64,000 bases of DNA from Candidatus Latescibacterota bacterium (GCA_965242865.1 CBDETK010000013.1:5408001-5472000); one strand, 5' to 3'; positions 1,270 through 48,152 are shown, numbered from the stretch's first letter. Made by a program: numbers and translations. The notes: a model not told the origin generated them from the sequence alone.

Positions 1270-2469
1270 ATGTTGTTGTACGCCTTTATGGAAAGGTGCC
1301 TCGTGGTCATCCCCCGTTTTGCCCAAAACAGTGTGCTCGCGGCGCTGGCGCAGTTCCCGGCCGTCGCGTTGGTCGGCCCGCGGCAGTGCGGCAAGACGAC
1401 CTTGGTCCGCATGCTCGACCTGTTGCCCGCGCCCGTTTTTTTCGACTTAGAGGATCCGCGGCACCGGCTGATCTTGGAAGACCCCTTGCGGGCGTTGCAG
1501 GCTGGCGAACTCGTCGTCATTGATGAAGCGCAGCGCATGCCGGAGTTGTTTCCCGTTTTGCGGGTGCTCATCGACCAGAACCGTCGCCCTGGGCAATTCC
1601 TCCTGCTCGGTTCGGCCACGCCCGACCTGCGTCGGCAGAGTGCGGAAAGTCTGGCTGGCCGGTTGCTGACCCTAGAGCTGACGCCGTTCACCGCCGCAGA
1701 GGTCGTCCCCGACCGCTGCTCGTTGGAAGGGCTGTGGGAACGCGGGGGCTTTCCCCTGTCGCTGCTAGCCGCCACGAGCGAGCAGAGCGTTTTGTGGCGT
1801 CAGCAGTATGTGCGCGACATAACCGAGCGCGATTTGCGGCTTTTGGGGTTTGATCTGCCGCCGGCGAGAATGTATCGCTTCCTGCAAATGCTGGCCCACA
1901 ACCACGGCCAACGCTGGAATGCCAGCCAACTGGCGCGCAGTCTCGAAATCGGCGCCACGACCGCCGGGCGCTATCTCGATGTCATCCAGCAAACCTATCT
2001 CGTGCGGTGTCTGCCGCCCTACCTGCGGAACTTGGGAAAACGCCTTACGAAATCCCCCAAGGTGTACATCCGCGACTCGGGCATCCTCCATTCTCTGCTC
2101 GCCCTGCAAAGCCGCGAACAGGTGCTTGGACATCCCGTAGCCGGTTATAGCTGGGAGGGTTTTGTCGTGGAGCAGTTTGCCGCGGCGCTGCCGCTTGGTT
2201 GGGAGTTGGCCTTTTGGCGCACGGCGGCCGGCGCGGAAATCGACTTGGTCCTGCTGCACGGCGGGCACCCGGTCATCGCGGCCGAAATGAAGATGAATAC
2301 CACTGACCCCCGCTCCGGTAGAGGGTTTTACGAAGGATGTAAGGATCTGGCCCCGCGTGAAAAGTGGGTCGTCTATCCCGGCGATGAGACCTTGGCCTTG
2401 CCCAATGGGGTGCTGGCCCTGCCGTTGGCCGAGGCCATAGAGCGGTTTGGGTCCATGGCTCAGCCGTGA
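1270..2469 (+). CDS. AAA_14 / DUF4143 ATP-binding protein
   Basis: GPRQCGKTT Walker A, IDEAQ Walker B, ESLAGR, KSPKVYIRDSG, WRTAAGAEID; start may be GTG ~1303. Confidence 0.9.
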   Translation: MLLYAFMERCLVVIPRFAQNSVLAALAQFPAVALVGPRQCGKTTLVRMLDLLPAPVFFDLEDPRHRLILEDPLRALQAGELVVIDEAQRMPELFPVLRVLIDQNRRPGQFLLLGSATPDLRRQSAESLAGRLLTLELTPFTAAEVVPDRCSLEGLWERGGFPLSLLAATSEQSVLWRQQYVRDITERDLRLLGFDLPPARMYRFLQMLAHNHGQRWNASQLARSLEIGATTAGRYLDVIQQTYLVRCLPPYLRNLGKRLTKSPKVYIRDSGILHSLLALQSREQVLGHPVAGYSWEGFVVEQFAAALPLGWELAFWRTAAGAEIDLVLLHGGHPVIAAEMKMNTTDPRSGRGFYEGCKDLAPREKWVVYPGDETLALPNGVLALPLAEAIERFGSMAQP

Positions 2470-4451
2470 CTGGACGACTGATCGCTCGCCTCGCCGGTGC
2501 CGCCCTGCTGCTCGGCGGCTTGGCCTTCAATCCGCTGGCCCTAGCGCATTTTTTTGGCGAGCCGCCGCTGGGCACTGAGGGTATCATCGCCCTCCAGATC
2601 GCCGCGATTGTGAGCGGCGGTTGGCTCGTTTGGCGCGGCCCTCGGCTGCCGCTGGTTCCCATCGCGCTCCTCGCGGTTGCCTTGGGCGCGCTGGCCGTTG
2701 TCGGGGGATACGGCACGGCCCGCTCCCTGCAAAAGGCGCGCGACCGCAACCGGCTCTTGGCCGCTATCGACCGCAGCGAACAAGTGCAGCAGCACCTCAG
2801 CGGCGAGGCCCTGCCGCTGCTCGCCTTGGGGATCTACCAAGGCCAACTGCCGGCGGCCCCGGCTCGCACGCTTTTTGCCGCTACGGTGGTGGTCGCGGAC
2901 GTGGTGCCGAACACAGAGGCGACCCAAGTCGTCCCGGCCTTGGGCATTAAACGCCAGCACTGGAAGATCGCTCCCGCCGAGCCGGTTTCCGCCGCCGACA
3001 TCGCGCTGTGGGAGCCGCTTTGGGCCGCGCTGGAGGGGTGCGATTATGCGGCCTTCCACATTGAGACCGGGCAGTTCCTCGACGCGGCGGGCGCGATCTA
3101 CCAAGCCCGCTTGCGCTTTGACGCCTCGGCGCAGACCAAGGACGGGGAGCGGGCGCAAATTCGGGCTGGGCTGAGGCTAGCGTGGCAGCAACAGGACGAT
3201 GCCGCTTGGCGGATTCAGCGCTGGGAGACCGAATCGCTGGAGACGCTCACGCGGCCGCACGCCCTGTTTGCCGGAGTTCTCGACGAGGCCCTCCCCGCTC
3301 AGGCTAGGGTTTCGCGCCACGCGGAACTGGTGCTCCAGTCGTTTCGCGACTCCGCGTTCGTCGCGCCGCACCGCTATTTCACGCGCCAAGCCTTTGATCG
3401 CCATCCCGGCATCAGCGTCGTAGATATCGACGCCGATGGGTACGACGACCTGTACCTTGCCGTGCGCCGAGGTAGGAACATGCTGTTGCACAATGGCGGT
3501 GACGGCGCGTTCACCGAGCGGGCGGCCCACTACGGCCTCGATGTGGAGCACCACACGGCCGCGGCGCTCTTCGCCGACTTTGACAACGATGGCGACCCGG
3601 ATGTCTTCCTCGGCCGCACGCTCGCGCCCAGCCGCTACTTGGTCAATGAGTGCGGGCGTTTTGTTCCCCGCGACTTGGGTGCTGACGTATTGCCGTCCCT
3701 CGTAGCCTCGATCTCGGCAGCCGATTACGACCGCGACGGGCTGCTCGACGGGTACTTCTCCACCTATGCCGCGCGGATGGTGCTCGACGCAGTAACCGCT
3801 GCTCCTCGCGCCGCGCTATTGGCCGACTTCCTGCCGGCGGACCGCGCTCGGACGCTCTACGACCTGAGCCGCGACCGCATCGGCCAGCTCATCCGCGACG
3901 CGCCCGGGCCGCCCAATGTCCTGCTGCACAACCTCGGCAACGGACGGTTCGCGCCCACAGCCGCCGTGTGGCGCAATACCTTGCAGGCGACTTGGGCCGA
4001 TTACGACCGCGACGGCGACCCGGATCTCTACCTCGCCAACGACTTTGCCGCCAACAACCTGTTTCGCAACGACGGCGGGGTCTTGGTGGATGTCACTGCG
4101 GCGAGCAAGGCCGCGGACCCGGGCTTTGGCATGGGCGCGAGTTGGGCCGATTACGACGGCGATGGCCGCCAAGACCTGTACGTGACCAACATGCACAGCA
4201 ACGCCGGGCGCCGCATCACGGCCGCGGCGGGGCCGGCGGGCGCGGCTTTTGCCCGGTTGGCTCGGGGCAGCTCCCTGTTGCGGAACAGCCGGGCGGGCTT
4301 TGTCCGGGTTGCGGATTCGCCGGTGGAGGACAGCGGCTGGGGTTGGGGCGGCCAATTTTTGGACTTTGACAACGACGGCGATCTCGACATCTACGCCCCG
4401 AGCGGGTACTACACCCCGCCGGCCGCCGTGGCCCTGCCCGAGGATACCTGA
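2466..4451 (+). CDS. Membrane-anchored FG-GAP/VCBS-repeat (CRTAC1-like) protein; N-terminal part of a probable 874-aa UGA-readthrough protein (2466..5090)
   Basis: N-terminal TM helices, repeated DxDxDGxxDLY motifs, GWGWGGQFLDFDNDGDLD; ends in TGA in frame with the ASPIC domain ORF. Confidence 0.85.
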   Translation: MTGRLIARLAGAALLLGGLAFNPLALAHFFGEPPLGTEGIIALQIAAIVSGGWLVWRGPRLPLVPIALLAVALGALAVVGGYGTARSLQKARDRNRLLAAIDRSEQVQQHLSGEALPLLALGIYQGQLPAAPARTLFAATVVVADVVPNTEATQVVPALGIKRQHWKIAPAEPVSAADIALWEPLWAALEGCDYAAFHIETGQFLDAAGAIYQARLRFDASAQTKDGERAQIRAGLRLAWQQQDDAAWRIQRWETESLETLTRPHALFAGVLDEALPAQARVSRHAELVLQSFRDSAFVAPHRYFTRQAFDRHPGISVVDIDADGYDDLYLAVRRGRNMLLHNGGDGAFTERAAHYGLDVEHHTAAALFADFDNDGDPDVFLGRTLAPSRYLVNECGRFVPRDLGADVLPSLVASISAADYDRDGLLDGYFSTYAARMVLDAVTAAPRAALLADFLPADRARTLYDLSRDRIGQLIRDAPGPPNVLLHNLGNGRFAPTAAVWRNTLQATWADYDRDGDPDLYLANDFAANNLFRNDGGVLVDVTAASKAADPGFGMGASWADYDGDGRQDLYVTNMHSNAGRRITAAAGPAGAAFARLARGSSLLRNSRAGFVRVADSPVEDSGWGWGGQFLDFDNDGDLDIYAPSGYYTPPAAVALPEDT

Positions 4452-4480
4452 AGCCTGTTTTGGCGCACGGTCGTGCGCCA
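4449..4480 (+). promoter_or_regulatory. In-frame UGA plus bacterial SECIS-like hairpin
   Basis: TGA(4449-51), 9 nt, stem TGGCGCAC (4461-68), loop GGTC, stem GTGCGCCA (4473-80); loop starts after a 17-nt spacer from the UGA and begins with G. Confidence 0.7.
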
Positions 4481-5090
4481 TGGTCGGACGGACGGGGCGT
4501 ACAACGTAGGAGCGCGGCTCGACGCGGGGGCCTCGCTCAGCGGCTACCAGCGCAACCGGCTATTCCTCAATGTGGAAGGCCGCGCCTTCCTCGATGTGTC
4601 GGGCTTGTCCGCGGCGGATTCGCCGGCCGATGGCCGCGCCTTTGCCACCTTGGACTTCGACCGCGATGGCCGCATTGACTTGGCCATCGTCAATGCCAAC
4701 GAGCCGCTCTGCGAGCTGTTTGCCAATCGCAGCAAGGCGGGGCACTTCCTCGCGGTGCGCTTTGTCGGGGGCAATGACCGCGCCGCGCCCACGAGCGCGT
4801 GGAGTGTGCGCGATGGCTATGGCGTGCAAGTGGAAGTGGAGGTCGACGGACGGACGTTACTGCGCGAGCACCGCGCCGGCGAGGGCTTTTCGGCCCAGAA
4901 CAGCGCGACCCTGATCGTCGGTCTAGGTGATCATCCGCAAGCGGACGCCCTGCGCGTACATTGGCCTTCGGGGCGAGTGCAGCGCGCAACCGACGTGGCG
5001 GCCGGGACGCTATTGACCGCGTACGAAAATCCCCGGCACTCGCCTACGGGGGCGGCGTTTGTAGTGGGGCCGTATCGCGGCACACCGTAA
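4452..5090 (+). CDS. ASPIC/UnbV domain (in-frame continuation of upstream gene; ORF track start 4473)
   Basis: SLFWRTVV..SLSGYQRNRLF..DGRAFATLDFDRDG..GEGFSAQNS..GLG..VHWPSG; 4473-2466=2007 nt, a multiple of 3. Confidence 0.85.
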   Translation, partial: SLFWRTVVRHGRTDGAYNVGARLDAGASLSGYQRNRLFLNVEGRAFLDVSGLSAADSPADGRAFATLDFDRDGRIDLAIVNANEPLCELFANRSKAGHFLAVRFVGGNDRAAPTSAWSVRDGYGVQVEVEVDGRTLLREHRAGEGFSAQNSATLIVGLGDHPQADALRVHWPSGRVQRATDVAAGTLLTAYENPRHSPTGAAFVVGPYRGTP

Positions 5091-5190
5091 GGGCGATTGC
5101 GGGGTAGTTGCGCGTTGGCTGCATCGGTAGGATATTGACAAGACGTAACGACGGTGCTAATGGCATCATGAGACAAGATATAGAATACTT
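4907..5190 (+). repeat. Direct repeat A, copy 1 (3' end of ASPIC gene plus downstream intergenic DNA)
   Basis: Aligns by eye with 14663..~14950 (gaccctgatcgtcgg...catccgcaagcggacgccctgcgcgtacattggccttcggggcga...ggatattgaca.gacgtaacga). Confidence 0.9.
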
Positions 5191-5199
5191 AGAGGAACC

Positions 5200-8100
5200 G
5201 TGAACGACAGAGATCTGAAATTTACAGATGTTCAAGCACTCGCTGGTAAGGATAGTCTAGCCTCTTTTTTCGCTACCCTTGGTTATGACACAGAGATGCG
5301 CCTGCCGCTGACCTCCACTGCCTTGGGCATCACAGCCGAACAGCTTCAGCGCCAGATAAAAAGTATAGAGCAACTCGCCGTTCAGGAGGATGGAGCGGAG
5401 CCACTATACGTTTATCTCGTAGAGTTGACCTCCGTCACGATTGCGGCTACGCAGGGTCTGGCTCGTGCCCTCAAAAACAGGGAGGGGAACTACGTTTTGG
5501 TGCTCACTGACGACTACGAAAGGCTGGACTTCGTCCTGCTCGAAAGGACTCTCCCCCAATCGAATGGTTCAATCCTCTCTCCACGCCAAGTATCCGTCAG
5601 GCCGCGCATCCTTACGGTCCATCGGCGCAACCCGTCGCGGGTCCATGTCCATTTGCGGGTTCTCAGAAGGTTCACCTACACCGAGGCGGACTCAGATGCT
5701 CAGTACGATAAGCTGCTGTCGGCTTATACTGTCGCCGAATGGTCCGAGCCTTTGTTCAACAATCGCGCCCTATTTTCTGACTATTATCTGAACGAACGCC
5801 TCCCCGAACTACAAGCATGGCAGGAGCATCCTGAGACGGTATATCACCGCTTTCAAGCACTATTCGCCGACTTCCGCGGTCACTTGTCTGATGATAGCCA
5901 AGCTACAATGCGGAATCTCCTAGTACCTGCTTTTAAGGCTCTTGGGTTCCGCGCTGTAAAGGACCAGCAGCGTTATCTCCTCTATACAGCCGATGCGCCC
6001 GACAAGCCTATCGCCTTTTGCTTGGCCTACAGTTGGAATCGCTACCTAGACGGACGCGATGAGACCCGCGACACAGATTCCCCCGAAGAGAATCCGGGCG
6101 CACGTGTCGTCTCTATCCTCGACTCGGGCGAGGCTCCTTGGGCTGTTGTGACCAATGGCAAGCTCTGGCGTCTCTACTCAGCGCAGGCGCACTCTCGCGC
6201 AACCAACTACTATGAGATTGACCTTGAAGAGACTCTAGCCATGGCCGATCCCAACAAAGCCTTCCGCTATTTTTATTTATTTTTCCGCGCCGCCGCCTTT
6301 GTGCCCGAAGAAGACGTGAGCGATGACCAAACTCGTCAAATTTGTTTCTTAGATAAACTTGTTGAAGAAAGCGAGACCTATGCCAAGGGCCTCGGAGATC
6401 GTCTGAAAGAGCGAATATTCGAGCAGGTATTCCCACACTTTGCCAAAGGCTTCATAGAGTACCTTGAACAACAGCCGGGTATTGTAGCTCCTCATCAGAA
6501 AACGCTGTTTCGCGTTGTACAGCAGTTGTCCCTTAAACAAGAGCCCAACGAGGAATTCCGCCGTCAGGTGTTCGAGGGGACGTTGACCCTGCTTTACCGC
6601 CTACTGTTCTTGCTGTACGCAGAGGCTCGTGGTTTGCTGCCGGTTAGAGAAGAACGAGGATACTTTGAACATAGCCTCACTAAGCTAAAGGAGGAAATCA
6701 AAGAAAAAGCAGGAAACATCCTCAACGAAGCTCCTACGAAACTCAGCTCAGTCTATCGCACCGACACCACTGACCTGTACGACAGACTGCTGACGCTATT
6801 TGCGGCCATTGACCAAGGGAGTCGCGACCTGAACATTCCTCTTTACAATGGCGGCCTTTTCATTACCGAGCCACAGGCCAAGGACAACTCTCTAGAGGCC
6901 ACAACCGCCCGTTTTTTACGGCAGCAAAAAATCCCCGACCGCTATTTGGCTATGGGGTTGGATTTGCTGGCACGAGATGTGGACGACAAGCGACAAGACC
7001 TTGTTTTTATTGACTATAAGTCGCTAGGGGTGCGTCAACTCGGTTCCATATACGAGGGGCTTCTGGAGTTCAAAATTCGCATCGCTCCTGAAAAAATGGC
7101 TGTGGTCAAGGGCAAGCGAACCGAAGAGGTCGTTCCCTACAAAGAGGCCAAGAAAGTTTTGACCAAAGGTAGAGGCCGCAACGCCGAGGAGCGCGTGTAT
7201 CACGCCGGCGAGATGTATCTTGAAAACGACCGCCGGGAGCGCAAAGCGTCCGGATCGTACTATACTCCCGATCATATCGTGAAGTACATCGTCGAGCATG
7301 CCGTAGGGCCGGTGCTTGAGGAGAAGTTTGAGAAACTGCGTCCTATATTTCGGAAGGCAGGGCAACAATACCGCCAGAAAGTGCAGCAAGCCAAGATCCT
7401 CAAAAGGCAGGGCTTGGAACCAGATGACCCGAACAAGATCGCCATTACTTTTCGTCCATTAGTGGACGATCTATTTGATCTGCGGATTCTCGACCCGGCG
7501 ATGGGTTCAGGGCACTTTCTGGTAGAAGCGGTGGACTTTATCTGCGACCGCATCCTTGGAGAGCAAGAGGGTTTCCTACAATCGTTCCCGTGGAACCCCG
7601 TGACGGCCTTCCTCGATGATACCCGTCGGGCCATCAGCACGGAAATGGAACGGCAGAAAATTTCGGTGGATACAGGCCGTCTAACCGACGTCAACCTGCT
7701 GAAACGCTACGTACTCAAGCGTTGCGTCTATGGTGTTGATTTGAACCCTATGGCCGTGGAGTTGGCCAAGGTGTCGCTGTGGCTGGACTGTTTCACCATT
7801 GGAGCACCGCTTTCTTTTTTAGACCATCACCTCAAGTGTGGCAATTCGCTCATTGGCACCACGGCACAGCAAGTGCAAGCCGAACTACCTAATCAAACCG
7901 ACCTGTTCGGCGGCCCTTTCCAAGGACTTATCGCTGCTACTGCCACGATTGAGCAACTGCGGCGCATTCCCGACGCCACGGCGTCGGAAGTCGAGGCCAG
8001 CCATACCCTTTTTGCAGACTTTGAGCAGGATCAAGCCCCGTACAAGGCTGCACTCGACATCTGGGTCAGCCGACACTTTGGAAACAGACTCGCCGAGGAA

Positions 8101-9639
8101 TACTTGGCCTTCTCAGGGGCTAATCTAGTCAAGCAGATACGCCCTGGAGGGAGCAGTCCTCCGCTGCCTAATAAATACCAAGAGACTATCAAGAAGGCCG
8201 CTGAAATAGGCATAGAGAAACGCTTCTTTCATTGGGATTTGGAGTTCCCGGAGGCATTTGTCGATTTGCGAGGCGGCCGGTGGAAGGCAAAGAGTGAACA
8301 GGGATTTGACGCGGTGGTGGGGAATCCGCCATATGATGTGCTTGGTAGAGAAATGATAGATAAAGAAACACAAAGGGAACTAGATTTCTACGATAGAATA
8401 CCTCTCTATACTCCTGCTTTGATTGGAGCGAAAAATATCTACAAATTATTCATCTGCCGTGGAATAGCTACCACTTGCAAGTCTGGAGTTATATCTTTTA
8501 TAGTGCCAATGTCTCTTTTGGGGGATAGACAGGCTACTGAGATCCGAAGGTTGTTTTTAGAAAAGATGAACTTGATTGCCATTGAGGTTTTTCCACAGAA
8601 AGATAACCCTAGCAGGCGTGTTTTCTATGAAGCTAAGCTATCAACCACGATTTTTGTATTGTGTAATAAATTTAGTGATAGTGAATTCTTAGTTCGAACA
8701 CATTCTGCACACAGTATCGTTGACAATACTCAAGATACATTGCAGGTCACATCGAAACAAATTCATCGCATGGATCCAAAATTTCTCTCGATTAAATCCT
8801 GTACGAAACGTGATTTTAAGATAGTTGATCGGTTATTCAGTTCTAAGACGACCACAATGGAAGAAAAAGTTCAACTTATGGAAGGAGAGGTTCATTCTGC
8901 TAGCCATAAAGAATTTCTCTCAGATAGTAAACATGTCGGTCCACTTGTTCTAAGAGGTGCATCCATATCTCTATATGCATTGAGAGAAGCTTCTCAGGGT
9001 GAAATTCTATATCTTGACATAGAGAAATATTTACAAGGAAGACGAGCGAGCTCTAAAGCATATCATCATCGTCAAAGGCGAATCGGATTCCAACGGTCAG
9101 CACCGCAGAATAATTTTCGCAGATTAATTGCTGCTCCAATACCAATAGACAATTTTTGCTTTGAGTCAATCAAGTATGTGACTACAGAAACAAGTCATAT
9201 GGATCTCAATTTGTTTATGGCTTTAATGAATTCAAAAATACTAGATTGGTATTTTCGACTGAGTAGTACGAATGCCTCTATTAACGAATATCAATTCAAT
9301 CAGTTACCAATTCCTAGTATGTCAAAAGACGAAATATATATTGATTGGTGTCCATTACTCGATACAGGCAAATGGCCTGATCTCTCAGGTCTGCTTTCAT
9401 CAGCCTGTAAGAAACCTGGTATTATGCCTAAGAATGTGGGAGAGGCAATCGCAGAAATGTGTCGTCGAATTCAGGAAATAGAAGCTCGTCGTGTGCTCAA
9501 AAATCGATCTGAACGATCGAGCCTATCACCTGAGAGCCAGCCTATTCAGGACACGATTGACAAGGTACTGTTCCGTTGCTACGGCTTGTCAGACGACGAC
9601 GCCCAGTACATTGAAGAACGTCTGCAGGAAATGTTGTGA
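5200..9639 (+). CDS. Type IIG (Eco57I-like) fused restriction endonuclease / N6-adenine methyltransferase
   Basis: VTNGKLWRLY REase-associated motif, LGSIYEGLLE, GSYYTP, DPAMGSGHFL (motif I), GNPPY (motif IV), C-terminal TRD. Confidence 0.9.
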   Translation: MNDRDLKFTDVQALAGKDSLASFFATLGYDTEMRLPLTSTALGITAEQLQRQIKSIEQLAVQEDGAEPLYVYLVELTSVTIAATQGLARALKNREGNYVLVLTDDYERLDFVLLERTLPQSNGSILSPRQVSVRPRILTVHRRNPSRVHVHLRVLRRFTYTEADSDAQYDKLLSAYTVAEWSEPLFNNRALFSDYYLNERLPELQAWQEHPETVYHRFQALFADFRGHLSDDSQATMRNLLVPAFKALGFRAVKDQQRYLLYTADAPDKPIAFCLAYSWNRYLDGRDETRDTDSPEENPGARVVSILDSGEAPWAVVTNGKLWRLYSAQAHSRATNYYEIDLEETLAMADPNKAFRYFYLFFRAAAFVPEEDVSDDQTRQICFLDKLVEESETYAKGLGDRLKERIFEQVFPHFAKGFIEYLEQQPGIVAPHQKTLFRVVQQLSLKQEPNEEFRRQVFEGTLTLLYRLLFLLYAEARGLLPVREERGYFEHSLTKLKEEIKEKAGNILNEAPTKLSSVYRTDTTDLYDRLLTLFAAIDQGSRDLNIPLYNGGLFITEPQAKDNSLEATTARFLRQQKIPDRYLAMGLDLLARDVDDKRQDLVFIDYKSLGVRQLGSIYEGLLEFKIRIAPEKMAVVKGKRTEEVVPYKEAKKVLTKGRGRNAEERVYHAGEMYLENDRRERKASGSYYTPDHIVKYIVEHAVGPVLEEKFEKLRPIFRKAGQQYRQKVQQAKILKRQGLEPDDPNKIAITFRPLVDDLFDLRILDPAMGSGHFLVEAVDFICDRILGEQEGFLQSFPWNPVTAFLDDTRRAISTEMERQKISVDTGRLTDVNLLKRYVLKRCVYGVDLNPMAVELAKVSLWLDCFTIGAPLSFLDHHLKCGNSLIGTTAQQVQAELPNQTDLFGGPFQGLIAATATIEQLRRIPDATASEVEASHTLFADFEQDQAPYKAALDIWVSRHFGNRLAEEYLAFSGANLVKQIRPGGSSPPLPNKYQETIKKAAEIGIEKRFFHWDLEFPEAFVDLRGGRWKAKSEQGFDAVVGNPPYDVLGREMIDKETQRELDFYDRIPLYTPALIGAKNIYKLFICRGIATTCKSGVISFIVPMSLLGDRQATEIRRLFLEKMNLIAIEVFPQKDNPSRRVFYEAKLSTTIFVLCNKFSDSEFLVRTHSAHSIVDNTQDTLQVTSKQIHRMDPKFLSIKSCTKRDFKIVDRLFSSKTTTMEEKVQLMEGEVHSASHKEFLSDSKHVGPLVLRGASISLYALREASQGEILYLDIEKYLQGRRASSKAYHHRQRRIGFQRSAPQNNFRRLIAAPIPIDNFCFESIKYVTTETSHMDLNLFMALMNSKILDWYFRLSSTNASINEYQFNQLPIPSMSKDEIYIDWCPLLDTGKWPDLSGLLSSACKKPGIMPKNVGEAIAEMCRRIQEIEARRVLKNRSERSSLSPESQPIQDTIDKVLFRCYGLSDDDAQYIEERLQEML

Positions 9640-9672
9640 ATGGTTCTAGAAGGACACATATAGGAGTTTGCA

Positions 9673-10563
9673 ATGAGAAAAACAGAACCAGTACCAGTAC
9701 CATCTGCAATCACGAAGACTTATCCTCAAAGAGGACCACTACAGCAATATAGATTTGCTACGGCAACAGCATTTCGCTGTTTCCGATGTGGCGCGACTAA
9801 GAAATCCAAGCTAATTACCATCTATCGAGATTGGATGAGAAAGCTATGCAATGGTTGCTATGGTCGTCTTCTATCCCTGTACGAGATTAAAGCTGGAACA
9901 GATTGTACTGACGAGAAAGCGGAACAGATAGCCGTACTGCTGATCTCTTTAGCCCGTGTCAATGACCGCCGGAATGCGGAATACCGTTTACTCGCTTCAG
10001 AGAGCCGTGCAAAATATCTATCCTCAGAATCGCTACGGTTTCTCGCAACATCGGAATTCATAGCATCAAAGTTGTGTTCAGAACCAGAACTTGAGTGGTC
10101 TCCTGCTGTTATCGGTATCTGTAAGGCGATTGAGATAGAGATTGTAAATCGTCTTATCCTACCTCTCGCTCAAAGAGTTGCTTCCGAAGATCTCTCAAAC
10201 GATACTAAAGATAAAGATGTAGGGCGAGTAGCAGCGTTTTGTGTCGATCCAAAGAGGAATCCACTAGAATTGGGTGCTATCTCTCACTTTTTGCAGACTA
10301 CAATTCACAGTCAACGACGGCGGGAAAGTAGTATTTTGATGGGTGTATTCTTACAGCTTGCATCTGATTGGGCTGGCTCCCAATGGATATTGAATCCAAA
10401 TGGTATATGCCAAGCTCTGTCAAAACTCAGGATAGACTTCAGAAATAAATCTGCACATATAGATGAAATGAGTGAAATACATTATCGTCAATGCAGGGAA
10501 TTAGTCATGGGAGTTGATGGTGTTCTTTGGAGACTCATACAGTCAGTTGAGAAACATAGATGA
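9673..10563 (+). CDS. Zn-ribbon plus HEPN-like domain protein
   Basis: CFRC...CNGC at N-terminus; KAIEIEI helix and RNKSAH (RxxxxH) near C-terminus; AT-rich coding sequence. Confidence 0.6.
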   Translation: MRKTEPVPVPSAITKTYPQRGPLQQYRFATATAFRCFRCGATKKSKLITIYRDWMRKLCNGCYGRLLSLYEIKAGTDCTDEKAEQIAVLLISLARVNDRRNAEYRLLASESRAKYLSSESLRFLATSEFIASKLCSEPELEWSPAVIGICKAIEIEIVNRLILPLAQRVASEDLSNDTKDKDVGRVAAFCVDPKRNPLELGAISHFLQTTIHSQRRRESSILMGVFLQLASDWAGSQWILNPNGICQALSKLRIDFRNKSAHIDEMSEIHYRQCRELVMGVDGVLWRLIQSVEKHR

Positions 10564-10682
10564 TTAGAGTAAAGGAACTTACAGAAACCACACAGGATGT
10601 GAAATACTTAGAAGCGATCTTAAATCATTTAGGATGGCTATATATACAGCATAGATGACATGATCCGTGAAGAGGATTGTAA

Positions 10683-11018
10683 TTGAATCTACCTAACGCA
10701 CAAAATGTCCGCATTAAAAAAGAGAAAATTACAGATTATCTGCTTTCAACAAGTAGCCTCGATGGTCGAAGCAAAGCCGAATTCTTCTTCGGATTCGGCT
10801 TTTGTATAGAGGAGTGGCAGATTTTTTTGGACGCATTGCGAATTCATGGAACGAGCCACGGAGTCGTCGAAATTAAAGAAACTAACTACGGCACGAAGTA
10901 TATTATAGATGGATCACTTGAGACCCCCGATGGACGCGACCCATACGTGCGGACTATCTGGCAGATTGATAGGGAAAGTGACTCTCCTAGGTTTATTACG
11001 GCGTATCCTACTGATTAG
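10683..11018 (+). CDS. DUF6883-like protein (putative toxin), copy 1
   Basis: KITDYLL..GRSKAEFF..FGF..YGTKY..G.LETPDGR..VRTIWQID..PRFITAYP. Confidence 0.75.
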   Translation: MNLPNAQNVRIKKEKITDYLLSTSSLDGRSKAEFFFGFGFCIEEWQIFLDALRIHGTSHGVVEIKETNYGTKYIIDGSLETPDGRDPYVRTIWQIDRESDSPRFITAYPTD

Positions 11019-11027
11019 GAGGCAAAT

Positions 11028-14000
11028 ATGTTCAAGGAATTAGACACCATTGTTCTTACAACCGAAATTCCGCTCGATCGTATCTGGGATATTCCACCTG
11101 GTAGCCCGCTGCTTGGGAACAGCAGTTCAGGAGAAGGTCTGAAAGCCGGCGATGTCGGCACGATTGTGTATATACAGGGTGCAGGGGAAGCCTTTGAGGT
11201 AGAGTTCTTGAAGCCAGATGGCTACACAGTCGCTATTGCCACGGTCTTACCATCGCAGGCTCGCCCGGCCACCAAAAAGGACCGCGCCAACTACCGCTTT
11301 GGGGAGAAGTCGCCCGCACATATCCCCTATGTTATAGACAACGAAAATTATCGCATGGCTGATGTGCTCAATGGGATTTTGGCAGGGCACGACAGCAAAT
11401 CACTGGACATCGCCACCGCCTATTTCAATGTACAAAGCTTTACGCTGCTCCAAGAAGGCTTGCAAGGACTTGGTAGCTTTCGCCTGCTGCTAGGCGATGA
11501 ACCCGAGGATGGAGAGTCGGTGGGGCTGCGTCCCCGGGCAGCGCTTAGGTTAATCCATGAACTGAACGCCGCTTCCTTTGACGAAGCTACCCTCAGAGCC
11601 GTTGAAGACCTCATCGCCTTTTTGCGCCGCAACTCAGTGGAGGTTCGTGCCTACCAGAACGGATTCCTCCACGCCAAGACCTACCTCTTCTACGGCGACT
11701 TACCCGTAGGCGGCGCAGACCGCTTTCAGCCTGTCGCGGCCATTGTTGGCTCTAGCAACTTTACTGGCCCTGGTCTAACCACGAATAAAGAACTCAACCT
11801 TTCCCACAAAACAGTGCTTGCCGAAGAAGAGGTCGCTCGGATAGACCCACCACCTGTTGACGGGCGATTGGAAATGGAACTTCGCCAACAGCTGGCCAGC
11901 GGAGTGGGTGCTCAGGCTATCGCCGAACTAGATAGATGGTTCCGAGCACACTGGGAACAGTCCCGCGATTTCAAAGACGACCTCATCGAACTCTTGGATG
12001 CTTCCAAGTTTGGCGAGAAGGAGTACACGCCCTATCAGGTGTATTTGAAGGCACTTTTCGAGTATTTCAAAGACGACCTCGACTCCGAGATGCAGGACCA
12101 TACGCGCTCTGCTGTCGAGTTGTCCGAGTTTCAAGAAGACGCAGTGAAAAAGGCCCGCAAAATTCTGACTCGCTACGATGGCGTGTTAATCGGCGATTCT
12201 GTGGGATTGGGCAAGACGTGGATCGGCAAGAAGCTGTTAGAGGACTACGCTTACTACCAGCGCCAGAAGGCACTCGTAATCTGCCCCGCATCCCTGCGTC
12301 AGATGTGGACCGATGAACTGCAAGACGCTACCATCTCAGCCGCAATCATTTCCCAAGAAGAACTCGGGCGGGCCAATTTTGACACCCATCGCAACGCTGA
12401 TGCAGAGGTGGTGCTGATCGACGAATCTCACAATTTTCGCAATCGCAGTACTCGGCGATACGAAAACCTCGAACGCATCCTTAGTGCCAATGGCAGTAAT
12501 GGTCGGGTCGATGCTCGCAAGAAACTGATCATGCTCACCGCTACTCCCATCAACAACAACATCTTCGACCTATACAACCAGATAACCCTGTTCACAGGCG
12601 GGGACCGTAGCTATTTCGCCAGCGCGGGTATTGGCGATCTACACAGGTTCTTCCTCCGCGCACGTCAAAATGCAGCCGATCACCACACCGGAACCGCGCT
12701 CTTCAACCTGTTAGAGGAGGTCGTGGTTCGGCGCACTAGGGCTTTCATTCGCAAGGCGTATCCCAAAGCTACCATCCAAGGCAAGGCTCTACAATGGCCT
12801 GAGCGCAGGCTCAAGACAATTCGCTACAATCTCGAGTCCACGTACGATGGAATTTATGAGAAAACTGTTGAATCCATAGGTGATCTGAGCCTTGCTCCCT
12901 ATCAACTGGAGACTTATAAGAAGGCGGGCGTTAAGAGAGATAAGTTTGAACAAGGCCGGGAAGAAGCACTGGCCGGCATTTTCAGAAGTCGCTATCTGAA
13001 GCGATTCGAGTCGAGTGTGGAAGCCTTCCGCATTAGCGCAAGACGCTCCTTGGAATTTACCAGAACTTTTGAACGCTATCTTTTGGCAGGCAGGCTGTTG
13101 GACAGTACATCATTCCGCAAAGCTATGCGCTTTCTCGACTACGAGAATGAAGAAGAGGACGCCAGCACTCCTTCCAGTATAGCCAATGACTTGGACGCTA
13201 CTGAGGAGGCGCGGTCTGCACTGGAAAGCCTGTCGGTTTTGGACCCTGAGCAGTACGATCTCAGCCGCCTACGCGAATCGCTACAGCGCGATGTAGAGGC
13301 GCTGACCGAGGTTTGGCACCTGACTAGCAATATCAAACCAGAGCAGGACGCCAAACTGGCGACTCTCAAGACGATCCTCTCTCAAGACTTGAAAGACAAG
13401 AAAGTCATCGTCTTCTCGTACTACCGGGATACAGCCCGATATATCCACCGGGAACTAACTGAAGAACGCGGTGAGAAATTTAGGGAGGAAGCCGGGGATC
13501 CAGTCATTCGTTGCGTGGATGGCGGTGTTTCGCCGCAAGACCGCAGACGATTTATTGAGGCGTTCGCTCCGCGTTCAAACGGCAGAGAGGAACTCGTCGG
13601 CTCTGAGAAAGAAGTGGATATACTCATATCTACGGATGTCTTATCTGAGGGCCAAAACCTCCAAGACTGTGGCATACTGGTCAATTACGACCTGCATTGG
13701 AATCCGACGCGCATGGTACAGCGTGCCGGCCGTATTGACCGCATAGGCTCGGAATTTCCGCAGCTTTGGGTTTACAATATGTTCCCAGAAGCGGGGCTGG
13801 AACGGCTCTTGGGACTAGTAGAGAGCCTAAGTCAAAAAATTGACGATATTGATAAGGCGGGATTTCTGGATGCCTCGGTACTGGGCGAAACGGTCCATCC
13901 TCGGAACTTCAACACCTTACGCCGCATTATGGAAGAGGATGGCAGTGTCGTCGAAGAGCAGGAACAGTTCGCGGAGTTGGCGAGCAACGAGTTCTTGTTA

Positions 14001-14648
14001 CAGCAGCTTCGCAATGCGCTGGGATCCGGTGCTCATGGGACGCTTGAGGAACTGCCCGATGGCATTCATTCTGGCTTAGTCCGAGAAGGGGAACGCGGCG
14101 TATTCTTCTACTTCACCGCACCCGCGACTCGCGGCGGAGATCGCCGTCACTTCTGGCGTTACTACGACCTGAATCGGAACGAGATACAGGATAATCGCCT
14201 TCTGATTACCAACCTGATTGCCTGCTCTGAGGATACTCCGAGGATAGTGGGCGATTGCGACTTATTCGCCGTGCAGGAAAAGGTAATAGAGAACATCTTG
14301 CAGTCCGTACAGGAGCAGCAGGCCGTGGCCGTGGCCCCTAGGATCCTCAACCCCATTCAGAAGAGCGTCATCACCCTGCTTCGCAGTTACCTGAATAGCC
14401 CTGCCATTGATCGACAGGAAGTAAGATCGGCGATGAAAAGACTTTCCCAGCCCATGACGCACGTTGTGGTCAGAGAGCTGAGAAAGGCTTACACAGCCTT
14501 CTCTCAGCACAGAGATGTCCATCAACTGATCAATGCTGTAAATGCTTCTACAATAGATGGAATAGAGCGAGAAAGGAATACCGGGAAGTCCGCACCGCTC
14601 AGGCGCGAAGACCTTCACCTTGTGTGTTTCGACTATGTTTGGTCGTAA
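11028..14648 (+). CDS. PLD-nuclease / SNF2-like helicase with N-terminal DUF4926-like domain
   Basis: N-term GLKAGDVGTIV..AFEVEF; HAKTY and GSSNFT (PLD); DSVGLGKT, DESH, TATP, SEGQNLQ, QRAGRIDRIG helicase motifs. Confidence 0.88.
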   Translation: MFKELDTIVLTTEIPLDRIWDIPPGSPLLGNSSSGEGLKAGDVGTIVYIQGAGEAFEVEFLKPDGYTVAIATVLPSQARPATKKDRANYRFGEKSPAHIPYVIDNENYRMADVLNGILAGHDSKSLDIATAYFNVQSFTLLQEGLQGLGSFRLLLGDEPEDGESVGLRPRAALRLIHELNAASFDEATLRAVEDLIAFLRRNSVEVRAYQNGFLHAKTYLFYGDLPVGGADRFQPVAAIVGSSNFTGPGLTTNKELNLSHKTVLAEEEVARIDPPPVDGRLEMELRQQLASGVGAQAIAELDRWFRAHWEQSRDFKDDLIELLDASKFGEKEYTPYQVYLKALFEYFKDDLDSEMQDHTRSAVELSEFQEDAVKKARKILTRYDGVLIGDSVGLGKTWIGKKLLEDYAYYQRQKALVICPASLRQMWTDELQDATISAAIISQEELGRANFDTHRNADAEVVLIDESHNFRNRSTRRYENLERILSANGSNGRVDARKKLIMLTATPINNNIFDLYNQITLFTGGDRSYFASAGIGDLHRFFLRARQNAADHHTGTALFNLLEEVVVRRTRAFIRKAYPKATIQGKALQWPERRLKTIRYNLESTYDGIYEKTVESIGDLSLAPYQLETYKKAGVKRDKFEQGREEALAGIFRSRYLKRFESSVEAFRISARRSLEFTRTFERYLLAGRLLDSTSFRKAMRFLDYENEEEDASTPSSIANDLDATEEARSALESLSVLDPEQYDLSRLRESLQRDVEALTEVWHLTSNIKPEQDAKLATLKTILSQDLKDKKVIVFSYYRDTARYIHRELTEERGEKFREEAGDPVIRCVDGGVSPQDRRRFIEAFAPRSNGREELVGSEKEVDILISTDVLSEGQNLQDCGILVNYDLHWNPTRMVQRAGRIDRIGSEFPQLWVYNMFPEAGLERLLGLVESLSQKIDDIDKAGFLDASVLGETVHPRNFNTLRRIMEEDGSVVEEQEQFAELASNEFLLQQLRNALGSGAHGTLEELPDGIHSGLVREGERGVFFYFTAPATRGGDRRHFWRYYDLNRNEIQDNRLLITNLIACSEDTPRIVGDCDLFAVQEKVIENILQSVQEQQAVAVAPRILNPIQKSVITLLRSYLNSPAIDRQEVRSAMKRLSQPMTHVVVRELRKAYTAFSQHRDVHQLINAVNASTIDGIERERNTGKSAPLRREDLHLVCFDYVWS

Positions 14649-14662
14649 TGTTTTTTTAGTGA

Positions 14663-14950
14663 GACCCTGATCGTCGGCTTGGGCGCACATCCGCAAGCGG
14701 ACGCCCTGCGCGTACATTGGCCTTCGGGGCGAACGCAACGCACAACCGACGTGGCGGCCGGGACGCTATTGACCGCGTACGAAAACCCAAGGCACTCGCC
14801 TACGGGCGCGGCGTTTGTGGTGGGGCCGTATCGCGCTGGCGAGCCGTAAGGGTGATTGCGTAGCGACCTCATTGGTCGGATATTGACAGGACGTAACGAT
14901 GGGCTTATGAACCGCGACCAGCATCATGCGATCTAGATGTAGAATATACT
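14663..14950 (+). repeat. Direct repeat A, copy 2; contains a start-less ASPIC 3' gene fragment (14663..14849)
   Basis: Encodes TLIVGLGAHPQADALRVHWPSGRTQRTTDVAAGTLLTAYENPRHSPTGAAFVVGPYRAGEP*, a diverged copy of the C-terminus of 4452..5090. Confidence 0.9.
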
Positions 14951-46547: not shown

Positions 46548-48152
46548 TCAAGGCTCGCGCACGGTCAGGAGCTGATCGGCCGCGACGTCGTGTAAGCGCG
46601 ACACCCGGCCGCTGGGCCAGCGGATTTCCACCTCGTCGGCGCGGGTGCGGTCTCCCAACCCGAAAAAGGGGCGCAGCGCACTTTGGCATAGATAGCTCGA
46701 TCCGGCCCGCACCACGTCATACCGCACTTGGTCGCCGGCCGCCACGCGGACCTCGGCCCCGATGGAGTCCCCGATCAACCGCAAGCTCAAGTAGTGCTGG
46801 GCATTGCCGCCGTCGTTGCGCAAGAGCGCGGCCGCTTGGTTGTTGTTGGCTACTACAATATCGAGATCGCCGTCGTGGTCGTAATCGCCCATGGCCGCGC
46901 CGCGGCTCACTTGCTGCAACCGCAGGCCCGGCCCCACCCGATTGCTCACCTCGGCAAAGCGCCCGTGCCCCTGATTGCGGAAGAGTTGGTTTTGCTGGGC
47001 GTACGTCACCGCGTCGAACAGGTGGATGTTGTCGTCGAGGTGGCCGTTGGCCACAAACAGGTCGCGGTCGCCGTCGTTGTCGTAGTCGATGAAGAGGGTG
47101 CCCCACGCGAGGAACGGCAGGCTGGGAACCCCCAACCCCGCCTGAAAGGTCACGTCGGCGAAAAACCCATTACCGAGGTTGCGGTAGAGGCTGTTGGTCT
47201 CCCACTGGTAGTTGGTGACGAAGAAGTCGAATCGGCCATCGCCGTCGTAGTCGCCCACGTCAACCCCCATGCCGGCCAGCGGCTTGCCCGCGTCGTTGTA
47301 AGCCACCCCGGCCAACGCGCCGACCTCGGCAAAGCGCCCTCCGTCGTTGCGGTAGAGCAAATTGGGGGTGCGGTCGCCGGCCGCGTACAAGTCGAGATCG
47401 CCGTCGCCATCGTAGTCGATAAAAAAGGCCCCGAGTTCCTTGGCGGCCGCTGGGAGCAACCCAACCTCCGCGGTGACATCGGCAAAGGTGGCGTTGCCTT
47501 GGTTGCGATAGAAGACATCGCGCTGGGGTGCAAAGGCCTCCGGCCCGCAGTACACCGCAATCTCACCGGAGCGGACGCAGGGCTGATGGATTTCGGGGCG
47601 GAACGCGGCGTAATTGGCCACGAACAGGTCGAGGTCGCCGTCGCCGTCGTAGTCGGCAAAAGCCGCGCCCGTACTCATCGCCGGGTTGGCTAGGACAGGC
47701 CCGGCCACGCCAGCCGCGTCGGTCGCCTCGGCAAACTCCCCGTCGTTGCGGTAGAGGATGTTGGGGCCGTACGCGGTGATGTACAAGTCCAAGTCGCCGT
47801 CGCCATCGTAGTCGGCCGCAGCCACGCCTAGCCCATAGCCCGAATGGGCCACGCCGGCCGCGTCGGTTGCCTCTGCGAATTGACCGGTGCCCGCGTTGCG
47901 ATAGAGCGCGCCCGGGCCGGCGCTGTTGACGAAGTACAGGTCGAGCCACCCATCGGCATCGTAGTCGAAAAAGGCCGCGCCCGACCCCATGGTCTCCATG
48001 GGGTACTTTTGCCCTTGCGCCCCATTCTGATGGCGAAAGGCGATCCCGACCTCGGCCGCCACCTCCACGAACTGCACCTCGGCGCGGCCCAGCGCGGCCT
48101 GTAGCAGGCCAAAGCAAGCGGCCCCTAAGAGGGCGCGCCGCGTCACGGGCAC
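46548..48152 (-). CDS. CRTAC1 family protein (FG-GAP repeats + ASPIC/UnbV)
   Basis: ETMGSGAAFFDYDADGWLDL, AGMGVDVGDYDGDG, SRGAAMGDYDHDGDLD, GSSYLCQS..FGLG..IRWPSG; no internal stop. Confidence 0.92.
   Translation of the reverse strand: MPVTRRALLGAACFGLLQAALGRAEVQFVEVAAEVGIAFRHQNGAQGQKYPMETMGSGAAFFDYDADGWLDLYFVNSAGPGALYRNAGTGQFAEATDAAGVAHSGYGLGVAAADYDGDGDLDLYITAYGPNILYRNDGEFAEATDAAGVAGPVLANPAMSTGAAFADYDGDGDLDLFVANYAAFRPEIHQPCVRSGEIAVYCGPEAFAPQRDVFYRNQGNATFADVTAEVGLLPAAAKELGAFFIDYDGDGDLDLYAAGDRTPNLLYRNDGGRFAEVGALAGVAYNDAGKPLAGMGVDVGDYDGDGRFDFFVTNYQWETNSLYRNLGNGFFADVTFQAGLGVPSLPFLAWGTLFIDYDNDGDRDLFVANGHLDDNIHLFDAVTYAQQNQLFRNQGHGRFAEVSNRVGPGLRLQQVSRGAAMGDYDHDGDLDIVVANNNQAAALLRNDGGNAQHYLSLRLIGDSIGAEVRVAAGDQVRYDVVRAGSSYLCQSALRPFFGLGDRTRADEVEIRWPSGRVSRLHDVAADQLLTVREP

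Follow-up and report, generated by a model that had tools for sequence, protein, structure and literature searches.

Selenocysteine (Sec) is a costly residue, found almost nowhere but at catalytic redox or metal sites. The catalogued bacterial selenoproteins, like the one described here, were predicted from a conserved UGA, a Sec insertion sequence (SECIS) and Cys homologues, and Table 1 of a May 2026 review (PMC13188914), presented as the most comprehensive inventory, lists 119 prokaryotic selenoprotein families and subfamilies. By name, several of these families are thiol:disulfide oxidoreductases, and two entries, a TonB-dependent receptor and an MtrB/PioB-family beta-barrel, belong to the outer membrane; some have non-thioredoxin folds, and no FG-GAP, UnbV_ASPIC, VCBS or CRTAC1 entry occurs among the 119. 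The present analysis concerns a gene at 2466..5090 of a 64,000-nucleotide stretch from Candidatus Latescibacterota bacterium (GCA_965242865.1, CBDETK010000013.1:5408001-5472000; the whole stretch is called the window), which very probably encodes a selenoprotein of the CRTAC1/ASPIC/UnbV type, with the UGA at 4449-4451 read as Sec. The window protein has its Pfam architecture in common with the CRTAC1/ASPIC/UnbV family, and its nearest solved relative by sequence, the only one found, is cartilage acidic protein 1 (CRTAC1; 9etn_A, E 3.7e-32).

The comparison with these systems revealed both likenesses and differences. Generic members of the CRTAC1/ASPIC/UnbV family have neither Sec nor Cys at the aligned column (Ile in the window paralogue, Met in the outgroup), whereas the Sec subfamily has an additional N-terminal domain of about 200 residues and often a fused thioredoxin-fold domain. 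The additional domain had no Pfam match, nothing credible being found at E ≤ 1. In the catalogued families Sec stands in a CxxC-type motif of a thioredoxin fold or in a barrel (PMC13188914), whereas in the window family it stands in a propeller loop and the thioredoxin-fold domain, where there is one, keeps an ordinary CxxC. No NCBIfam family matched the window protein at E ≤ 0.01, and a full-text literature search returned no relevant paper joining selenoprotein or selenocysteine with FG-GAP, ASPIC, VCBS or CRTAC1. Term searches of the main texts of deep-Sep (PMC12013277) and BSepDB (PMC13326102), which leave their supplementary family tables outside, showed no such family. No paper reporting an enzymatic function for the CRTAC1/ASPIC/UnbV family turned up in the literature search. 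Since Table 1 of the review holds no entry, NCBIfam and the literature gave no match, and the public proteins are annotated in truncated form, the protein was rated as representing an uncatalogued selenoprotein family that would be decoded by the ordinary bacterial mechanism.

The gene forms a single frame on the plus strand from GTG at 2466 to TAA at 5088-5090, 874 codons in length, whose sole interruption is the TGA at 4449-4451. The frame up to the TGA (2466..4451) encodes 661 residues ending in PEDT, and the read-through context is ALPEDT-U-SLFWRTVVR with the interrupted codon as residue 662; the original prediction of an FG-GAP reading frame continuing past a TGA to give 874 residues was thus borne out, the frame staying open until the TAA. 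The features of the gene are as follows.

2466..5090, plus strand: whole candidate selenoprotein gene, 874 codons and TAA with the putative Sec as codon 662 (from the frame, the Pfam domains on either side of the TGA and the orthologues)
2466..2720, plus strand: N-terminal hydrophobic region, residues 1-85 (Kyte-Doolittle scan)
3408..4448, plus strand: FG-GAP beta-propeller blades upstream of the putative Sec codon, from residue 315 (Pfam FG-GAP_3 and FG-GAP; solved relative CRTAC1, 9etn_A)
4449..4451, plus strand: TGA, putative Sec codon (U662), in the motif D660-T-U-S663-L-F-W666-R667 (aligned-codon conservation; independent contigs)
4461..4480, plus strand: SECIS-type hairpin with an 8-bp stem, 4461-4468/4473-4480, and a GGUC loop, 4469-4472 (folding, consensus criteria, wobble entropy)
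4710..4712, plus strand: TGC, Cys749, candidate resolving thiol of the window's clade (alignment of clades)
4815..5018, plus strand: UnbV_ASPIC, PF07593, residues 784-851, wholly downstream of the TGA (Pfam E 8.6e-17, profile positions 1-68 of 68)

Five FG-GAP_3 stretches (E 1.9e-34) and an FG-GAP match (E 2.7e-18) all precede the TGA, and neither half alone is a complete protein of the CRTAC1-type family. When the TGA is read through, an FG-GAP propeller followed by PF07593 in a single chain is obtained, which is the CRTAC1/ASPIC-UnbV layout as judged from Pfam and 9etn_A. The same Pfam set was found, as had been claimed, in an uninterrupted paralogue of 534 residues at 46548-48152 on the minus strand; being only 30% identical to the window protein and having Ile aligned at the Sec site, this paralogue says little about the site itself. 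As the repeat pattern is read, Sec662 would lie in a long insertion between strands 2 and 3 of the sixth FG-GAP blade. FG-GAP/UnbV_ASPIC proteins are greatly expanded in the window's own genome, where the genome search with the window protein returned 146 matched stretches.

Standard annotation would divide the window gene into a 661-residue protein and a separate C-terminal piece of about 205 residues, and such a split is what public databases hold. A database search with residues 540-800 showed that 93 of the 120 best matches (571-744 residues, 57-98% identity) end exactly at the TGA position, and the four of these with NCBI names were all 'VCBS repeat-containing protein'; the remaining 27 matches run across the site, with 30-46% identity. 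Among 168 Latescibacterota genomes, 49 had at least one match carrying an in-frame TGA. Tabulation of the aligned codon, which the original prediction had proposed, gave TGA in 31/31 fetched same-phylum loci, and TGA recurred in distant clades and phyla beside homologues with Cys. Junction identity among the orthologues was 76-99% at the amino acid level, and over residues 2-874 they were 66-89% identical, with one in-frame TGA each.

A pattern scan of other public genomes gave 72 loci, comprising 54 with TGA, nine with Cys, one with Asn, one with Ala and seven in which the site was not located by motif search. The TGA forms came from metagenome-assembled genomes (MAGs) labelled Latescibacterota, Gemmatimonadetes, Planctomycetota (Planctomycetaceae, Pirellulaceae, Mariniblastus) and Verrucomicrobiota (Akkermansiaceae, Roseibacillus), and one (L089, with the site D-L-U-S-C-Y-W-R) lies on a complete chromosome, NZ_AP026866.1, whose title names Oceaniferula spumae strain NT6N. 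A third clade (clade C), with the motif KDT-U-SLFWRHVLAS, carried TGA in 19 of 20 regions, the site not being located in L151. A further scan, based on a Glu form, turned up additional TGA forms in Verrucomicrobiota, Planctomycetota and Acidobacteriota; the first 18 of its 80 loci comprised five TGA, three Glu and ten in which the site was not located. Stretches of 546 codons contained exactly one TGA and no other stop in 46/46 Sec-form loci, and no TGA or other stop in nine Cys, Asn and Ala forms, and the TGA was conserved down to 35-45% protein identity. In five loci a tandem second copy has its own TGA at the equivalent site. These tandem duplicates, each copy with its TGA within a U-S-C-x-W-R motif, were seen in Mariniblastus and Pirellulaceae MAGs (L101, L104 and L109 at about 5600-5760; L094 and L102 at about 380-560).

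The possibility that reads would show TGG in place of TGA was also considered, and independent assemblies carry TGA: contigs of three public runs from three studies, spanning 4250-4650, had the TGA and the hairpin unchanged. Related contigs with 8-10 differences per 401 nt over 4250-4650 were found in two runs of other studies, X4 (labelled sponge metagenome) and X10 (labelled metagenome), and near the junction none of their differences touches the TGA or the hairpin.

A second selenoprotein paralogue of 1275 residues was noted on another contig of the same genome (L022, 220-4047). Its layout comprises a signal anchor, a propeller with DL-U-SFFWRQVV, UnbV_ASPIC, AhpC-TSA with WCPPC, and TPR repeats, and it has its own hairpin, GCGGCA-AGUUG-UGUCGC.

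The Sec machinery was then sought in the window's genome, and selA (556 bits), selB (349 bits), selD (381 bits, with its own in-frame TGA) and tRNA-Sec (70 bits) were all present above curated cut-offs, a check that the original prediction had called for. The selD gene (L001) is itself a selenoprotein gene, in the context ACGG-U-ASK, and the loop of the hairpin downstream of its TGA differs from that of the window gene. Across the phylum, selB was present in 128/168 genomes, including 47 of the 49 with a TGA form; the two exceptions were 80% and 87% complete. Outside the phylum, the strain-named record of Oceaniferula spumae NT6N combines the Sec form with selA, selB, selD (with TGA) and tRNA-Sec, and one Akkermansiaceae MAG likewise has selA, selB, selD (with TGA) and tRNA-Sec. 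Only one of five genomes tested, G172, which holds the Ala form L123, was without a selB match above the cut-off; its selB lies in two adjacent pieces (model positions 26-237 and 234-578) and may be frameshifted. TGA is also an ordinary stop in the window, where it ends the upstream gene at 2467-2469 and 11 of the 34 frames of at least 300 codons, the latter being a crude count that includes non-genes.

Downstream of the TGA, the arms TGGCGCAC (4461-4468) and GTGCGCCA (4473-4480) form a stem closed by the loop GGTC (4469-4472). An 8-bp stem with a GGUC loop is therefore present as originally described, but the distance of 17 nt given for it is that from the UGA to the beginning of the apical loop, and the stem begins after a spacer of 9 nt. 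With a 4-nt loop starting with G-G, an 8-bp stem and a loop 17 nt from the UGA, the window hairpin resembles the bacterial SECIS consensus and the Escherichia coli fdhF SECIS, whose loop reads GGUC; its stem sequence is unrelated to that of fdhF. With a minimum free energy (MFE) of -17.6 kcal/mol, the window hairpin lies within all four criteria of the bacterial SECIS consensus model (loop 3-9 nt; stem 4-16 bp; G in the first two loop positions; UGA-to-loop distance 16-37 nt with MFE ≤ -7.5; PMC13188914, section 5). The hairpin is embedded in the codons for W-R-T-V-V-R, that is, in the invariant motif W-R-x-V-V, and thus the protein and RNA constraints overlap. Its significance rests on comparative data and not on the hairpin by itself.

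Synonymous sites were evaluated in a codon alignment of 30 Sec genes from three phyla, using third-position entropy at the 63 columns with a degenerate residue at least 85% conserved. The 58 columns outside the hairpin had entropies of 1.11-2.53 bits. Within it, the third position of R667 had 0.65 bits (CGC or CGT only), that of V669 0.0 bits (GTC in 30/30) and that of V670 0.21 bits (29 GTG and one GTA, in L106, which also has a compensating CGT); the positions of R671 at the stem foot (1.55 bits) and S663 upstream of the stem (2.15 bits) were relaxed. Among the 63 conserved degenerate columns, synonymous sites are frozen in the hairpin codons only. Codons varied freely in Cys, Asn and Ala forms with the identical residues, 7/9 of which lacked a 6-bp stem, and variable wobble positions were also seen in the three Glu forms for which DNA was available, where a Val-to-Met change abolishes the loop. 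On this evidence the hairpin is under selection only in the TGA forms.

A contiguous stem of at least 6 bp was observed in 48/65 distinct Sec sequences, compared with 8.3% of 29,005 in-frame control windows from the same genes and 2/9 non-Sec forms. The remaining 17 Sec sequences had 4-5 contiguous pairs, many of them being T-to-S (ACG to TCG) forms with a U-U mismatch in the stem. The arms differ by clade at a constant position (GGCGCAC/GUGCGCC, GCGACA/UGUCGC, GGCGGCA/UGCCGC and UGGCGCCA/UGGCGUCG), and sister clades have 5-nt loops, GGUCG on GCGACA/UGUCGC and GGCGGCA/UGCCGC, and CGUGC on UGGCGCCA/UGGCGUCG. Covariation was assessed as a descriptive comparison of stem arms between clades; the arms change in a compensating way, and together with the synonymous-site result this bears out the expectation that the hairpin would be conserved. 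One Cys form (TGC; L113, 3049-3110, from a Phycisphaerales MAG) retains the full hairpin of its Sec relatives, with 7 bp and a GGUCG loop, consistent with a recent replacement of Sec by Cys.

On these grounds, the UGA at 4449-4451 is very probably decoded as Sec within one 874-residue protein by the genome's SelA, SelB, SelD and tRNA-Sec, with the hairpin at 4461-4480 acting as a canonical bacterial SECIS that would direct the insertion. Under selenium shortage, a truncated propeller of 661 residues would be expected. Among the outcomes examined that had been named beforehand as speaking against a selenoprotein, none was encountered.

The residue at the site was also compared across forms. The 27 spanning database proteins had Glu in 21, Met in four (a distant outgroup), Cys in one (P0011) and a gap in one at the aligned column. 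The Cys homologues expected for a Sec site therefore exist, although the commonest non-Sec residue is Glu. Including P0011, ten Cys forms were found in total (L113, L118, L119, L124, L128, L129, L130, L114 and L126 being the others), with MAG labels that include Phycisphaerales, Polarisedimenticolia and Bryobacterales; there were also an Asn form (L116), an Ala form (L123) and Glu forms (L152, L153, L155). A FastTree phylogeny of 74 rows, a quick method in which long branches were flagged, placed Sec in each of the three main clades and the Cys, Glu, Asn and Ala forms nested inside them, amounting to at least eight state changes. D660, S663, W666 and R667 were invariant across all states and clades. 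The non-CxxU context that had been pointed out is thus real and conserved as D-x-U-S-x-x-W-R, and neither this motif nor N-M-x-S-x-A-G-x-R was present in the generic CRTAC1-like paralogues compared.

Candidate partner thiols differ between the lineages. Cys749 was present in 18/18 sequences of the window clade and in none elsewhere in the aligned set, where the other clades have His, Phe, Leu, Met, Ser, Val or Ile; this clade lacks the fused thioredoxin-fold domain. The window protein itself has no AhpC-TSA/Redoxin WCxxC fusion and ends 23 residues past UnbV_ASPIC. A fused C-terminal thioredoxin-fold domain with [W/Y/H]CxxC 255-297 residues past the Sec was found in 19/19 clade-C loci, and a fused CxxC domain also occurs in L022 and in many Planctomycetota, Verrucomicrobiota and Acidobacteriota forms; Pfam assigned AhpC-TSA or Redoxin in L022 (8.8e-26), L136 and L139. 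In 17 aligned sequences without the fused domain a Cys follows two residues past the Sec (U-S-C). The three arrangements, C664, C749 and the fused CxxC, were mutually exclusive across the aligned set. Among Glu forms keeping the extension, 12/15 lacked CxxC, and the Bryobacterales Cys forms lack CxxC and have a common Cys 27 residues downstream. We infer from the exclusive second-thiol arrangements, which come from non-independent kin, the pattern expected of a selenol/thiol redox couple.

Taken as a whole, the data are likely, with good confidence, to be best explained by a Sec-decoded propeller protein with a redox-active selenol that probably works outside the cytoplasm. In this explanation Sec662 would lie within the subfamily motif D-x-U-S-x-x-W-R of a CRTAC1-type propeller with ASPIC/UnbV. 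The more specific proposal that the selenol is a redox-active nucleophile, cycling via a selenenylsulfide with a lineage-dependent partner thiol, is slightly favoured; the partner would be the fused AhpC-TSA/Redoxin TlpA-like WCxxC domain, the Cys of U-S-C, or, in the window clade, Cys749 in the next blade. Considering the cost of Sec and its near-exclusive use at catalytic sites, its presence marks the propeller loop as a probable active site. The Neisseria PilB/MsrAB protein, a periplasmic reductase fused to a TlpA-like thioredoxin domain, may serve as an analogy, as an idea only, in that an exported fused CxxC domain would recycle the catalytic residue of its neighbour. It differs in that the catalytic domain here would be the propeller, and the window protein itself has no thioredoxin-fold domain.

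The location of the protein was assessed from the N-termini. Lipobox (L093), signal-peptide-like (L139, L136) and signal-anchor (L089) sequences were recognized by eye, and such export signals in relatives make an extracytoplasmic site of action most likely for the family. The extracytoplasmic placement originally suggested for the window protein is supported for relatives that have a signal peptide or lipobox, but the window protein itself is ambiguous: residues 1-85 contain three hydrophobic segments in the Kyte-Doolittle scan, and a cluster of basic residues comes after the strongest of them, at 61-82.

It can be proposed tentatively, at somewhat less than an even chance, that the window gene is the founding member of a large family of exported selenoenzymes which spans several phyla and uses the CRTAC1/ASPIC propeller as its scaffold, with a loop selenol as nucleophile, at least three interchangeable thiol sources and redox-dead Glu forms. 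If true, this would be the first catalytic function for the CRTAC1/ASPIC fold. The Sec site would provide a concrete handle on the function of bacterial CRTAC1/ASPIC proteins and would extend the known selenoproteins by a fold that is not of the thioredoxin type and is probably extracytoplasmic. Annotated gene counts, domain architectures and selenoproteome sizes would be wrong for this family in MAGs labelled Latescibacterota, Planctomycetota, Verrucomicrobiota and Acidobacteriota.

Several observations count against the selenoprotein and redox explanation. Many of the counted genomes are kin, the Latescibacterota records of the 72-locus scan probably overlap the set of 168 genomes, and one of the two patterns in that scan had Cys at the site, which makes the sample biased. 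The hairpin taken alone is not beyond chance (z = -1.74, with 9/200 shuffles folding equally well, in DNA of 60% GC), and no Rfam family was found for it, a search at E ≤ 10 giving only a chance TarB match of 15 bits. selB also occurs in Cys-form genomes, so the presence of the machinery does not discriminate Sec from Cys forms. Glu, and not Cys, is the commonest replacement (21/27), Asn and Ala also occur, and a ligand-binding or non-catalytic role would account for these residues no less well than a loss of function. CxxC is retained in 5/18 Glu forms with the extension (2/3 in the second set), the Sec form L160 has no obvious partner Cys, and the Cys form L114 has only a distant one. No conserved redox-partner gene lies beside the gene in the neighbourhoods examined, and the basic cluster after the strongest hydrophobic segment leaves the topology of the window protein ambiguous.

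Among the alternatives, the one that survives best accepts a genuine selenoprotein and regards Sec662 as a ligand for a metal or chalcogen species, with the TlpA-like domains keeping it reduced or handing over the metal; we consider it unlikely. TlpA-type proteins act in the assembly of copper centres, which can be offered in its favour. The site tolerates Glu (in the 21 spanning proteins and in L152, L153 and L155) and Asn (L116), both of which typically bind hard metals in FG-GAP proteins. At the column of the window clade's Cys749, clade C has His-His, and several metal-binding selenoprotein families are listed in the review (PMC13188914). However, the loss of CxxC with Glu and the exclusive partner-Cys arrangements read more simply as a dithiol/selenothiol couple, an Ala form exists, and no second or third conserved soft ligand is common to all Sec clades.

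Returning to the decoding of the UGA as Sec, a true stop at the TGA would give either two polypeptides, of 661 residues and a restart, or a truncated propeller only, the downstream part being a separate gene or a relic. Gene callers do split the gene there, as the 93 database matches ending at the site illustrate, and an in-frame GTG is available at 4473. This reading is nevertheless very improbable, given that more than 100 loci from several phyla, without exception, keep both parts in one frame with no spacing, that homologues with Cys, Glu, Asn or Ala consist of one chain, and that S663, W666 and R667 directly after the TGA are invariant, with the junction identity already given for the orthologues; on our reading of the blades, the break would also cut the propeller ahead of its last blade. 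Reading of the UGA as a standard residue (Trp, Cys, Arg or Gly), through codon reassignment or near-cognate suppression and not through the Sec system, would have precedent in the UGA reassignments known in some bacteria (PMC13462651). It is extremely improbable here, where TGA ends the upstream gene and other long window frames, the Sec-form loci have exactly one TGA per 546-codon stretch, no Trp, Arg or Gly occurs at the site in any homologue tabulated, the hairpin is under selection only in TGA forms and the Sec machinery co-occurs in 47/49 genomes. A sequencing or assembly error or a recent pseudogene, which might be suspected from the 13-contig assembly with 6.84% estimated contamination, was rejected as having a practically negligible chance because the same TGA was found in independent contigs of three runs from three studies, in 31/31 loci and in distant loci down to 35-45% identity.

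The genes on either side of the candidate selenoprotein gene were also inspected. The upstream gene at 1270-2469 encodes an AAA_14 and DUF4143 ATPase (PADLOC candidate PDC-S01, E 8.3e-90) and overlaps the selenoprotein start by GTGA; it was not present upstream in the orthologue loci examined. Directly 3' of the selenoprotein gene lies an island of about 9.5 kb (5100-14850), which looks DISARM-like from its gene content and contains the following.

5200-9639: DrmMI/type IIG methyltransferase-like gene
9673-10563: open reading frame of 296 residues
11028-14648: Snf2/DrmD-like helicase

The island is bounded by a direct repeat of the last approximately 190 bp of the gene (about 4925-5100 against 14665-14850), with 88% mean column identity over the whole alignment and higher identity within the repeat. 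The arrangement looks like that of an integrative element which would target the 3' end of the gene and rebuild it. Around the Planctomycetota and Verrucomicrobiota loci the flanking genes vary and include citrate synthase and sulfatase. In orthologues from other genomes a GDPD gene lies downstream in place of the island, and in three orthologue loci GDPD is followed by a beta-lactamase-family gene.

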